Assembly: GCA_963719515.1 (NCBI GenBank)
Contig: CAVRCJ010000001.1
Coordinates: forward strand, 96,001 to 160,000
Source: an uncultured cyanobacterium
Lineage (GTDB): Bacteria; Cyanobacteriota; Cyanobacteriia; CAKZMO01
Length of the DNA stretch: 64,000 bases
Direction of reading: 5' to 3'
Numbering within the stretch: the first letter of the stretch is position 1; the number at the start of each line of letters is the position of its first letter. The notes below the pieces were generated by a model. It was not told the origin of the DNA. It searched no databases and saw nothing but the letters and a program-made list of their open reading frames with translations. Made by a program: the position numbers and the translations under genes. Positions 1 to 29,473 of the stretch are shown here, one piece after another.

Positions 1-64
1 GGGTGATCAGCACGGGGGGTGCCGCCTCAGGTTGAGACGGCTGCTCGGGGTATAGGAATGTCAT
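1..64 (-). CDS. Small uncharacterised protein, 5' part only (MTFLYPEQPSQPEAAPPVLIT...), runs off the window edge; paralog of 25208..25486
   Basis: ATG at 64-62; N-terminus MTFLYPEQPxxxEAA matches the ORF at 25208; same upstream leader. Confidence 0.75.
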   Translation of the reverse strand, partial: MTFLYPEQPSQPEAAPPVLIT

Positions 65-285: not shown

Positions 286-314
286 AGGATAGCGCACCTA
301 GTACAAAGGGGCAA
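286..314 (-). promoter_or_regulatory. Sigma70-type promoter for leader A (TTGCCC-17bp-TATCCT)
   Basis: Same -35 hexamer and 17-bp spacing as upstream of copy B; ends ~7 nt before the first hairpin. Confidence 0.55.
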
Positions 315-24292: not shown

Positions 24293-24835
24293 ATGAAAAA
24301 GTACATCAAAACGCTTGCGGTCACTGCTGCTGTTGTCGCGACGGCTGCGATCGCGGCTCCTGCTGCTTTTGCTTTCGACTTCCGTGGAAGCGTATCGGGT
24401 ACCTCAGGAGAGTCGTTCTCGTTCGACTTTGATGCAGACGTGGCGGGCGACGGAGATAGCTTGACCAATCTGACAAATTTTGGAAATTTGTCATTTGAAT
24501 GGATTCGGCTTTAGTTAAATCCGGACTCTCTGAGCAGACGGCTCGTCTCCCTGAGATATTTGGCTCAAACGATGTTTTAGACGTTTCTTTATCTGGGGGA
24601 ATTGGGAATCTCTTTGCATTCAATGATGCCGCTTCCGACGGATTTTACGTAGCAGAAAGGATCTTTTCGGGATCATTCCAGAAGGATTTTTATCGCTTCG
24701 TCAACCTCTGTCGTCGCCCTTGACACTTCCACCCCCACAGATAAGATCCCGACTCCCGCGCTCCTCCCTGGCCTCATCGGCATGGGCATTGCCGCCATCC
24801 GCAAGCGTGGCCAGCCGAAAGCCGAAGAAGCATAG
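24293..24835 (+). pseudogene. PTPA-CTERM (PEP-CTERM-like) surface protein, frameshifted
   Basis: Signal peptide MKKYIKTLAV...AFA; C-terminus IPTPALLPGLIGMGIAAIRKR in a different frame. Confidence 0.75.
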
Positions 24836-24957
24836 ATCGACCTACTGCTTCGGCCCAGTTGCTTAGAACAATGCAGACGGCAAGCCTCAGTGTTTCATAG
24901 GTTACTGGGCAGCAGGTCCCGGCGTCCCCACGGTCGTCGGGACTGCTTCGATTAGAC

Positions 24958-24986
24958 TTGCCCTCTGACCGCGAATAGTGTAAATT
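24958..24986 (+). promoter_or_regulatory. Sigma70-type promoter for leader B (TTGCCC-17bp-TAAATT)
   Basis: Same -35 and spacing as copy A. Confidence 0.55.
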
Positions 24987-24994
24987 TTACGCTT

Positions 24995-25207
24995 GAGAGC
25001 TGCAACCCGCAGCTTAGCTCCCAAGACTTTGGTCATAAACGGCGACGACCGTTGCTGGAGACAGCGATCGCCGCCTGACCCCCAAGACAGGACAGAGCTG
25101 TCCGGGCGCTATGGGCATTGTCCCATGGCCATCCCGAACACCCAACGTCGCAGGGATGGCCAAGGCTTGGGTTTCCTACCCATCAACGCAAAACAGGAAC
25201 CCAAACC
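24995..25207 (+). ncRNA. Candidate structured RNA leader, copy B
   Basis: Hairpins 24998-25014, 25031-25080, 25086-25102, 25111-25126, 25127-25161, 25168-25182, colinear with copy A. Confidence 0.65.
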
Positions 25208-25486
25208 GTGACATTTTTATACCCCGAACAGCCCCTCGACCGCGAGGCGGCACTGATTCGCCTAGACCAAATTCCGCCCCAGCCCGACGGCGAGGTGGTG
25301 CGTCACCTGCTCATCGGCTCCCCCGAGGGCATCCGCGAAACCATCCACCTCATGCACATCAACCGCTACTACGTCGAGCAGGGCCTGTGGACCGGACCGG
25401 TGGACATTGGCCCCGACGGCGTGAGGCTGAGCCGCCGGGAAGGGCAGGTGTTGGCCTACCTAATGCGCCAGCGCGGGCTGCAGTAG
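25208..25486 (+). CDS. Small uncharacterised protein (92 aa, MTFLYPEQP...RHLLIGSPEGIRETIHLMH...)
   Basis: GTG start preceded by AGGA; N-terminus shared with the ORF at 64..1. Confidence 0.75.
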   Translation: MTFLYPEQPLDREAALIRLDQIPPQPDGEVVRHLLIGSPEGIRETIHLMHINRYYVEQGLWTGPVDIGPDGVRLSRREGQVLAYLMRQRGLQ

Positions 25487-25514
25487 CCTAAACGCCGGCC
25501 AGGGCGGTGCTGGC

Positions 25515-26604
25515 TTACCACAGGTGGCACTGCCCGTGGTCGCGCAGCAGATGGTCACAAAGCACCAGGGCCATCATCGCCTCCACCATGGGCACCGCCC
25601 GAGGCAGCACGCAGGGGTCATGTCGCCCCCGCGCCGCCAGCACCGTATCTTCCCCCTCGCGGGTCACCGTGTTCTGCTGCTTGCGAATCGTGGCCGTCGG
25701 CTTAAAAGCGACGCGAATCACCACCGGCTCCCCGTTGCTGATGCCCCCCTGCACCCCCCCCGAGCGGTTGGTGCGGGTGCGGGTGTTCCCCGCCTCGTCG
25801 ATATAAAATTCGTCGTTGTGCTCGCTGCCGGTCATCGTCGTCCCGGCAAACCCCGAGCCAATCTCGAAGCCCTTACTGGCGGGCAGCGACATCACACCCT
25901 TGGCTAGGTCAGCCTCCAGCTTATCGAACACCGGAGCCCCCAAACCACGCGGCACCGAGCGGGCCACACATTCCACCACGCCACCGATGGAGTCTCCCGG
26001 CGCGCCCCGTTTGCTCAATCAGATCGATCATCCGCTCGGCGCAGTCGGCGTCAGGGCAGCGGACGATGTTGCTCTCCACCTGCTCTAGAGTGACGGTGGC
26101 GGGGTCTACGACCCCTTCTAGGGTCTGAATGCGCTTCACGTAGCCCACGATTTCCACGCCCGCCGCCTGACGAAGAATTTTTTTGGCGATCGCCCCTGCT
26201 GCCACCCGGCCAATGGTCTCCCGCGCCGAGGAGCGTCCCCCGCCCTGCCAGTTGCGAATGCCGTACTTAGCGTCGTAGGTGGCGTCCGCGTGGGAGGGGC
26301 GGTAGGCCGTCTGCATCTCGGTGTAGTCCTGAGAGCGGGTGTCTTTGTTGCGCACCAGGATAGAAATAGGCGTCCCTGTGGTTTGGCCCTGAAACACCCC
26401 CGACAAAATCTCGCAGGTATCTGACTCTTTGCGCGGCGTGGTGATTTTACTTTGGCCCGGACGGCGGCGGTCTAGGTCAAACTGGATTTCTTCCGCCGAA
26501 AGCTCTAAGCGAGGCGGACAGCCATCTACCGTGACGCCGACTCCGCCCCCGTGGGACTCTCCAAAAGTGGTGATCCGAAACAGCTGTCCAAAAGTGTTGC
26601 CCAT
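25515..26604 (-). CDS. aroC: Chorismate synthase; +1 frameshift near 25997 (probably a sequence error)
   Basis: [19 protein letters not shown] motifs in two overlapping ORFs. Confidence 0.93.
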
Positions 26605-28411: not shown

Positions 28412-29473
28412 TTAGCCTTTAATGGCAGGTGCCTCAGCAGCAGCAAGGTCAAGCGGGAAGTTGTGAGCGTTGCGCTCGTGCATCACTTCCATACCTAGGT
28501 TGGCGCGGTTGATGATGTCCGCCCAGGTGTTGATGACCCGGCCCTGGCTGTCTAGAACAGACTGGTTGAAGTTGAACCCGTTCAGGTTGAACGCCATCGT
28601 GCTGATGCCCAGCGCCGTGAACCAGATGCCTACGACAGGCCATGCGCCCAAGAAGAAGTGCAGTGCCCGTGAGTTGTTGAACGATGCATATTGGAAGATC
28701 AGGCGGCCGAAGTAGCCGTGCGCTGCAACGATGTTGTAGGTCTCTTCTTCTTGCCCGAACTTGTAGCCGTAGTTCTGCGACTCAGACTCAGTCGTCTCTC
28801 GCACCAGTGAAGAGGTCACCAGTGAACCGTGCATCGCGCTGAATAGTGCGCCGCCGAAGACGCCTGCCACTCCCAGCATGTGGAAGGGGTGCATCAGAAT
28901 GTTGTGCTCGGCCTGGAACACGAACATGAAGTTGAACGTGCCCGAGATGCCCAGCGGCATGCCGTCAGAGAATGAACCCTGGCCGATGGGGTAGATGAGG
29001 AAGACTGCCGTTGCTGACGCTAGAGGCGCGCTGTAGGCAACGCAAATCCAAGGGCGCATGCCCAACCGGTAAGACAGCTCCCACTGACGACCCATGTAGG
29101 CAAAAACGCCAATTAGGAAGTGGAATACCACTAGCTGGTAAGGTCCGCCGTTGTACAGCCACTCGTCAAGTGATGCTGCTTCCCAGATGGGGTAGAAGTG
29201 TAGGCCGATGGCGTTGGATGACGGAACAATTGCACCAGAGATGATGTTGTTACCGTACATCAGTGAACCTGCAACAGGCTCGCGGATGCCGTCGATGTCG
29301 ACGGGAGGCGCTGCAACGAATGCAATCAAGAAGCAGATGGTTGCGGTTAGCAAAGTCGGAATCATCAGGACGCCGAACCAACCGACATAGATGCGGTTGT
29401 TGGTGCTGGTGACCCAGTCGCAAAACCGCTCCCATACGTTAGCGCCAGAGCGCTGCTGTAAAGAAGTAGTCAT
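28412..29473 (-). CDS. psbA: Photosystem II D1 protein
   Basis: Canonical D1 sequence, Q130, ends HNFPLDLA plus 9 aa. Confidence 0.99.

Follow-up and report, generated by a model that had tools for sequence, protein, structure and literature searches.

A multicopy cyanobacterial gene unit whose structured ~220-nt leader may act as a translational switch

The DNA analyzed here is a window of 64,000 nt (positions 96,001 to 160,000 of contig CAVRCJ010000001.1, i.e., G000:C1:96001-160000) from the 5.28-Mb genome of a filamentous cyanobacterium (G000; 21 contigs, 57% G+C). It contains two copies, A and B, of a unit composed of a promoter, a folded leader of ~220 nt, and an open reading frame (ORF) of 75–160 aa, and about 60 scattered, stand-alone copies of this unit are present in the genome. 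The leader carries a long-range helix (P1), which is predicted to close a five-way junction, and a second helix (P6), which covers the Shine-Dalgarno sequence. As P1 and P6 have a run of G residues in common and are predicted to be of similar stability, the leader looks like a translational switch. Our leading, still tentative proposal is that this switch acts in cis on a one-gene unit and is triggered by a macromolecule, most likely the encoded protein itself (autogenous control).

Two Copies in the Window and About 60 in the Genome

Sequence read-out located both copies where a first-pass annotation of the window had placed them, and a pairwise alignment (74% mean column identity) recovered their common motifs in the order given there. 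The leader of copy A extends to position 25207 (+). Both leaders fold more stably than shuffled sequences, with z-values of −4.3 for copy A and −7.8 for copy B, and in neither case was any of 200 shuffles equally stable.

Across the genome, the protein gave 51 matches (E ≤ 0.01), and an nhmmer profile of the upstream region gave 55 matches, 43 of which were full length. An intact ORF is present in 39 of these 43 full-length units, while the remaining four are broken, three by a frameshift and one by a TAG in frame. A covariance model, R1 (194 positions and 54 pairs, built from 53 leaders), yielded 62 genome matches at E ≤ 0.01, which puts the number of units at about 60; the match to copy A spans window positions 25020-25208. 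The extra matches of R1 include a second protein clade (MTYD..., LRLIAIGS..AV.NCR..LH.LGYA...WS...VMRILTKRI). Inspection of 16 diverged R1 matches revealed 11 intact ORFs of the family, three broken ORFs, and two RNAs without an ORF.

Similarity between the copies starts at the −35 box and ends at the stop codon. The −35 place reads TTG in 42 of the 43 genome units and is followed by TAnnnT in 41 of these 42, with a spacing of 17 nt (31 units) or 18 nt (10 units). Position and spacing of the promoter TTGCCC-17-TAnnnT, as proposed in the first-pass annotation, are therefore conserved across the genome copies. A strict sigma-70 consensus scan, however, made no call for copy A, although a manual count finds 8 of the 12 consensus positions, so this promoter is a putative one that is read from conservation only. 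The sequences that follow the stop codon are not related between copies; many contain a hairpin, but few a T-run. All-against-all clustering of the ORFs flanking the 43 units revealed no recurrent neighbor gene, Tandem Repeats Finder detected 0 arrays in 24850-25600, and no terminal inverted or direct repeats flank copy A within 24750-25750; the P5 region of the leader (CATCCC...GGGATG) was also called as inverted repeat I1 in the repeat scan. The unit is a stand-alone gene and not a classical mobile element, and the suggestion of a mobile or selfish unit found no support in either terminal repeats or conserved flanks.

Some units are clustered, including three copies 6–7 kb apart (G000:C18:20890-34572) and two copies 2.2 kb apart (G000:C1:256573-259347), and short repetitive ORFs rich in serine and leucine lie upstream of several clustered units. 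The genome also holds a repeat element of ~400 bp in more than 50 copies with 98–99% identity, one of which is located at 746-1143 (−) of the window, ~430 bp from copy B. Pairs of sites ~1.4 kb apart match the ends of the element and may point to a longer parent element. A ~780-bp insertion that contains this repeat splits the leader of a family unit at locus L008 (G000:C1:181206-181982), beside an HNH-like ORF fragment.

Covariation Supports a Five-Way Junction

A plain MAFFT alignment of the 43 leaders was analyzed by RNAalifold, which returned the 5′-terminal hairpin P0, part of the long-range helix, P2, P3, and the helix over the Shine-Dalgarno sequence. Two-sided changes keep 22 of the 34 RNAalifold pairs paired; within P0, for example, columns 17:34 hold UA in 21 rows and CG in 18. 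A second alignment fitted 100 leaders from 20 genomes to R1, 45 of them from G000 (leaving out the five near-duplicate loci L005, L015, L035, L041, and L101) and 55 from 19 other genomes. All counts given below refer to these 100 leaders unless stated otherwise, and they lean toward structure because the alignment was fitted to the model. Standard pairs fill 87.7% of the cells, compared to 70.2% in shuffles and 35–47% when the partners were slid by 1–3 columns. Two-sided changes occur at 48 of the 54 pairs, compensatory cells amount to 974 versus 308 in shuffles and 164–208 in the slid controls, and none of 500 shuffles attained any of the observed pairing measures. Covariation across homologs is thus strong in both alignments.

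From these alignments, P1 is predicted to be a long-range helix of ~15 bp that closes a five-way junction of ~165 nt holding P2, P3, P4, and P5. In its general form, CCCAAAAATTTGGTC pairs with GRCCNNN-TTTTTGGG. All 14 of its modelled pairs vary, 12 of them with two-sided changes, and 88.8% of the cells are paired. At locus L065, which belongs to another cyanobacterial family, the P1b strands TTTGGTC/GGCCAAA are replaced by TTGCCGC/GCGGCAG with full complementarity kept. The 5′ strand of P1 had been described in the first-pass annotation as a linker (TCCCAAnAnTTTGGTCA), but it has a partner, GGCCAAn-TTTTTGGG, ~150 nt downstream. The same annotation had let a GGTCA/TGACC or TAGCC pairing close the long stem, for which we found no support: a change from G to A in 21 of 99 rows leaves the proposed partner a C, whereas the long-range P1 partner turns to T in 20 of these 21 rows. 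The median duplex energy of the proposed closure is −3.6 kcal/mol, compared to −8.4 kcal/mol for the long-range pairing.

A further revision concerns the TGGGT/ACCCA hairpin suggested for the 3′ end of the leader, which shows no covariation because its letters are invariant. The covarying helix at this place is P6 (GGGTTTCCT/AGGAACCC), which covers the Shine-Dalgarno sequence (AGGA at 25195-25198 in copy A). Its seven modelled pairs all show two-sided changes, with 91.1% of the cells paired, and three of them alternate between UA (39 leaders) and AU (33), UA (59) and CG (29), and CG (48) and UA (38), respectively. The other stems that had been read from copies A and B, i.e., the AGAGCTG hairpin (P0), the long stem (P2), GACAG-N7-CTGTC (P3), the variable hairpin (P4), and the core of GGCCATCC/GGATGGCC (P5), are all backed by compensatory changes. 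Among the unpaired positions, only ~5 are conserved to at least 90%. When all column pairs were scanned for additional (pseudoknot) pairings, lineage signal dominated and no usable result emerged.

That the RNA belongs to no named family, as first assumed without database searches, agrees with Rfam 15, which gave 0 matches over the whole window at the gathering threshold. Relaxed Rfam searches returned only chance-level matches (E ≤ 10 for copy A and E ≤ 0.1 for eight further unit loci), and a full-text search of the literature collection covered, judged by listings and abstracts, found no published description of the RNA or the protein.

P1 and P6 Have a G-Run in Common

P6 begins with the same three bases (GGG) in which P1 ends. 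The two C-runs with which this G-run could pair are both conserved, one being the CCC that begins P1 on its 5′ side and the other a CCC just ahead of the start codon. With the G-run included, the median duplex energy is −16.1 kcal/mol for P1 and −15.1 kcal/mol for P6, and without it the values drop to −7.2 and −6.2 kcal/mol, respectively. The G-run measures 3 nt in 60 of the 100 leaders, 4 nt in 8, and 5 nt in 20. L065 has a length of 4 nt for all three runs, the G-run and the C-runs at the 5′ end and ahead of the AUG, and in the clade with five G residues, as far as can be read from the alignments, both C-rich partners can probably extend to 5 pairs.

Minimum-energy folds were calculated for 43 leaders from the putative transcript start to +20. 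The Shine-Dalgarno window was at least 60% paired in 42 of these 43 folds. As for the G-run, 35 folds paired it downstream and 4 with the 5′ CCC, while its pairing was unclear in the other 4. As the folds favor P6, the predicted resting state is one with a closed ribosome-binding site (OFF). The covariation of P1, in turn, argues that the alternative state is under selection as well. Three examples had been offered for the nature of the unit, namely a riboregulator, an RNA–protein module, and a selfish unit. The riboregulator fits best, since the helix that sequesters the Shine-Dalgarno sequence has its G-run in common with the helix that closes the junction. The features of both copies are compiled in Table 1.

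Table 1. Coordinates of the two unit copies and their structural elements in the window.
Feature	Position	Strand	Description
Copy A, putative promoter	24950..24978	+	−35 TTGCCC 24950-24955, 17-nt spacer, −10 TAAATT 24973-24978
Copy A, P0 (5′-terminal hairpin)	24997..25015	+	GAGCTGC / GCAGCTT; present in the minimum-energy fold of copy A
Copy A, P1 5′ strand	25020..25034	+	CCCAAGACTTTGGTC; pairs with 25158-25171
Copy A, P2 (long hairpin)	25041..25075	+	Carries GCGATCGC-type palindromes, in which P2 is often rich; two-sided changes at 13 of 14 pairs
Copy A, J2/3	25076..25085	+	Best-conserved single-stranded stretch; consensus CT-R-n-C-C-c-c
Copy A, P3	25086..25102	+	GACAG-N7-CTGTC; 5 pairs, 96.5% of cells paired, 4 with two-sided changes
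Copy A, P4 (hairpin of variable length)	25108..25129	+	ATTnT-type apical motif; 7 of 8 modelled pairs with two-sided changes, 78.4% of cells paired; alignment uncertain here
Copy A, P5	25130..25158	+	CATCCC...GGGATG; 6 pairs, 93.2% of cells paired, 5 with two-sided changes; outer pairs overlap P1 3′ strand
Copy A, P1 3′ strand	25158..25171	+	GGCCAAGGCTTGGG; ends in the common G-run 25169-25171
Copy A, P6 (anti-Shine-Dalgarno helix)	25169..25202	+	GGGTTTCCT 25169-25177 pairs with AGGAACCC 25195-25202
Copy A, ORF	25208..25486	+	92 aa, GTG start
Copy A, ORF domains	25208..25486	+	Acidic, proline-rich N-terminal tail, then conserved basic C-terminal domain of ~65 aa
Copy B, putative promoter	286..314	−	TTGCCC 314-309, TATCCT 291-286
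Copy B, leader core P1–P6	51..249	−	Covariance-model match G000:C1:96051-96249, 122 bits
Copy B, ORF start	1..64	−	ATG 64-62; gene exits the window; 96 aa in the genome

The RNA Precedes One Protein Family

Outside G000, 51 of 55 RNA matches are followed by an ORF of at least 45 aa that starts within 25 nt of the RNA end, and the remaining four ran into contig ends. The family profile (E ≤ 0.001) matches 46 of these 51 ORFs; the five non-matching ORFs include two with probable GTG starts that were mis-assigned and one frameshifted gene. Family ORFs were also recognized by eye at 10 of 12 further loci. Together with the covariation, these matches strongly back the original idea of a small protein to which a conserved, structured RNA is coupled.

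Within the order, the RNA model matches 13 of 17 genomes, all from one family, with 1 to 62 copies each, and many copies in the draft genomes of relatives lie at contig ends. In a phylum-wide sample, 10 of 151 genomes were matched (G000 counted), and genomes chosen from other families hold 14, 24, 22, 5, 1, 4, and 4 copies. In total, the RNA fold was found in at least seven cyanobacterial families. Among 401 genomes sampled across the phylum, 46 have a match to the protein profile, and matches occur in 24 of 156 genera. The named relatives of the protein derive from metagenome-assembled genomes (MAGs) of Elainellaceae. A search for related loci retrieved only Elainellaceae and one unclassified cyanobacterial MAG, a limited outcome because a single peptide pattern was used.

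According to these comparisons, the protein family is wider than the RNA, and some homologs lack this leader. The RNA model had no match in three chosen genomes that carry short-form homologs, and both the single-copy long forms of one genus and the short forms of another family have different, simpler upstream regions. The short-form homologs L068, L070, L073, and L075 have no large leader and show a conserved GGCGATCGCC...GCGATCGCC hairpin ~20–25 nt upstream of the Shine-Dalgarno sequence, which is present in two tandem copies in L073.

A Family of Small Proteins with a Basic C-Terminal Domain

The N-terminus of the protein is conserved as MT[FIT][LQ]YP..P..EAA. The variable tail is acidic and rich in proline (median pI 4.2, 20% Pro), and the C-terminal domain of ~65 aa is basic (median pI 9.7). 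The copy A protein is 30–88% identical to its paralogs in the genome. For 39 paralogs compared in pairs, the median dN/dS is 0.46 over the domain and 0.66 over the tail; the unit genes are coding, under no more than moderate constraint. A profile search of 1.84 billion representative proteins retrieved 262 clusters (50% identity) at E ≤ 0.001, and the best 150 of these 262 are all small (36–185 aa). Judging from these searches, the family appears to be restricted to cyanobacteria. Near-invariant positions over 137 diverse members are confined to Gly, Ile, Leu, Tyr, and Trp, and this composition argues for a binding or scaffold domain rather than an enzyme.

The protein had no family match in Pfam, NCBIfam, PADLOC, PHROGs, or a PDB sequence profile search, and matches in the ESM Atlas were limited to "hypothetical" cyanobacterial clusters. 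A tblastn search against plasmids revealed no homolog. Two AlphaFold models (pLDDT 70.8 and 74.7) gave no Foldseek match in the PDB at E ≤ 0.001, and the best VIA-align Z-score was 2.7. These searches assign no fold to the modelled structures, which does not show that the fold is new. A possible likeness between the IGSPEG loop and RNA-binding loops of the GxxG or YhbY type was set aside, as the second Gly is missing in the second clade and Pfam returned nothing.

Genomic Surroundings of Copy A

A promoter-like sequence, TTGACA-16-TAAGAT (10 of 12 consensus positions), lies at 24720-24747 (+), ~230 nt upstream of the −35 box of copy A, with no gene evident for it. The gene at 25515-26604 (−), which we take to be a chorismate synthase gene (aroC), is convergent with copy A. 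It is read as one ORF at 25921-26604 and another at 25515-26018, which overlap and differ in frame, possibly owing to a frameshift or an assembly error. In a genome of the same genus (L164, G411:C210:320-4394), the slot beside aroC holds a unit of a different subfamily. There, the leader is 68% identical, compared to 86% for aroC; the ORF can be read for just 53 aa, and the flank on the far side shows no relationship. An ORF at ~28412-29473 (−) is presumably psbA-like (D1 protein), judged by its N-terminus; a psbA paralog lies within 4 kb of 3 of the 43 units, probably by chance.

Proposed Mechanism

In the proposed cis-acting switch, the leader would alternate between two states. In the P1 state, the ~15-bp P1 would close the five-way junction formed by P1 and the hairpins P2–P5. 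In the P6 state, the G-run would pair with the CCC upstream of the start codon, extend P6, and hide the ribosome-binding site. The two states would be about equally stable, and with predicted folds leaning to P6, the resting state would be OFF. Stabilization of the closed junction would take the G-run from P6 and thereby loosen the ribosome-binding site. The data show the structure, the common G-run, the tie between RNA and protein, and the number of copies; that the leader switches, in which direction, and upon which trigger is what we infer. The trigger would be a macromolecule that recognizes the shape of the junction, and the likeliest candidate is the basic C-terminal domain of the family itself. 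We prefer a macromolecular trigger because the regulon comprises one protein family and the junction sequence is only loosely conserved, and we consider a metabolite less likely. The basic domain, the acidic tail, and the ~5 conserved unpaired positions also favor a macromolecule, and the strict linkage between RNA and protein, taken together with the basic domain, hints at autogenous control.

Several points weigh against this proposal. In the 5-G clade, P1 and P6 overlap by only 1–2 nt, and the two helices could coexist there, stacked end to end. The Shine-Dalgarno window is ~73% paired even when P1 forms in the predicted fold, and the contrast between ON and OFF may therefore be small. A protein that stabilizes P1 would exert positive feedback, which would be unusual for autogenous control. 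Binding of the RNA by the protein is conjectural, given that the modelled fold is unmatched and that Gly, Ile, Leu, Tyr, and Trp supply all near-invariant positions, and homologs in other lineages do without this leader. Moreover, the pair counts from the 100 leaders are biased toward structure by the fit to R1, for which the MAFFT-only analysis serves as the independent check.

Alternative Explanations and Known Systems

A serious rival, if in our view an unlikely one, is a riboswitch for a small molecule or ion. The five-way junction would then be the aptamer, a ligand would stabilize P1, and the G-run would couple this to exposure of the Shine-Dalgarno sequence; the mechanism would be as proposed above and only the trigger would differ. 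The architecture fits, with a structured domain backed by covariation at 48 of 54 pairs and an expression platform into which the 3′ strand of the closing P1 extends (in silico, P1 and P6 being nearly iso-energetic), and the fold is conserved over at least seven cyanobacterial families. The lysine riboswitch is likewise a five-way junction, of similar size, and the SAM-I riboswitch is a four-way junction. With both, the unit has in common a long-range P1 that closes a junction of hairpins, the overlap of the P1 3′ strand with the platform, and control at the Shine-Dalgarno sequence. Unlike them, the unit RNA has no Rfam match, few conserved junction nucleotides, and a single small-protein family as its target in ~60 copies per genome, and for an aptamer of ~165 nt it has few invariant unpaired positions. 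Riboswitch classes are marked by metabolic or transport genes that indicate the ligand, but this RNA always precedes the same small-protein family, which lacks conserved residues of the catalytic type, and the flanking genes are unrelated and provide no metabolic context. We know of no precedent among riboswitches or protein-binding leaders for ~60 copies per genome upstream of paralogs of one gene. The leader could also be static, without a specific ligand, and serve mRNA stabilization or processing, permanently low translation, or temperature sensing of the fourU type. The conserved P0 at the 5′ end would suit such a role, as would the U/C-rich strand that pairs with the Shine-Dalgarno sequence in many copies (TTTTCT:AGAAAA) and the sequestration predicted in 42 of 43 leaders. 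Thermometers of the fourU and ROSE types, however, are short hairpins with weak U-rich pairing to the Shine-Dalgarno sequence and no large sensor domain, whereas the anti-Shine-Dalgarno strand found here is joined to a 165-nt junction that covaries in all helices and exceeds what stabilization or a thermometer needs. Two C-runs matched in length to one G-run are also hard to explain without alternative pairing, and we consider a static leader improbable.

A different kind of explanation is an RNA–protein addiction or defense module, either similar to type III toxin–antitoxin systems or of a type I fold-back kind, in which the leader restrains a harmful small protein. This would account for many scattered and fast-evolving copies. 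It agrees with the dispersed multicopy occurrence, the broken genes (4 of 43, plus three broken ORFs and two RNAs without an ORF among the diverged units), the leader interrupted by a repeat-element insertion, the fairly high dN/dS (0.46 in the domain, 0.66 in the tail), the different subfamily in the slot beside aroC in the same-genus genome, and the predicted OFF resting state. As in ToxIN, one promoter would serve a structured RNA and then a protein gene, and the unit is multicopy and fast-evolving. However, it lacks the tandem antitoxin RNA repeats of type III systems (0 arrays) as well as a terminator-like hairpin between RNA and ORF (copy A), and Pfam, NCBIfam, and PADLOC detected 0 families each, hence no ToxN/AbiQ, CptN, or TenpN toxin; the protein is half the size of ToxN, has no conserved catalytic-type residues, and has no plasmid homolog by tblastn. 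Type I toxin mRNAs such as hok and tisB resemble the unit in the long-range mRNA pairing that keeps the ribosome-binding site closed by default (predicted here). They encode membrane peptides, unlike the soluble, basic unit protein, which is no hydrophobic toxin-like peptide, and no antisense RNA was seen, although no search for one was made. We regard an addiction module as quite improbable. The bolder notion of a new self-contained RNA–protein module has similarly poor prospects; here, the ~165-nt junction RNA would be both gatekeeper of translation and partner of the basic protein, and the family would have spread, up to dozens of copies in a genome, as an addiction, immunity, or defense-type element rather than as a housekeeping regulator. 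By far the least credible alternative is that the unit is mobile or selfish DNA, a small element multiplying within the genome. Its ~60 dispersed copies without a recurrent neighbor gene, and the many copies at contig ends in the draft genomes of relatives, would be compatible with mobility. Nevertheless, the unit has no transposase and no flanking terminal inverted or direct repeats, similarity is confined to the stretch from promoter to stop codon with unrelated flanks, and the copies are old and diverged (30–88% protein identity between copy A and its paralogs), in contrast to 98–99% for the repeat element of the same genome.

For the favored protein-triggered switch, a parallel is offered by the autogenous leaders of ribosomal-protein operons (such as L1, S15, and L20), which are also structured, tied to one small basic protein family, and act on the ribosome-binding site (predicted here). 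The unit differs from them in that its protein is not ribosomal, it is multicopy, its RNA is much larger, and binding is conjectural. The Rfam leaders glutamine-II/Downstream-peptide, Cyano-1, and Cyano-2 are cyanobacterial and located upstream of small genes as well, but these motifs are much smaller than the unit leader, and none reaches the threshold on the window or on eight further unit loci. A structured leader that sequesters the Shine-Dalgarno sequence is of a known sort; what makes this one unusual is how large it is, how many copies exist, and that it occurs with a single protein family only.

Implications

If the proposal is correct, a large and well-supported class of structured RNA joins the short list of cyanobacterial cis-regulators. 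At the same time, a small-protein family of 262 clusters is marked out in cyanobacteria, for which none of the searched libraries supplies a function, a name, or a fold. The two-state design, with one G-run and two C-run partners, yields mutants that are directly testable. Once identified, the trigger would explain the maintenance of dozens of such units in some filamentous cyanobacteria.

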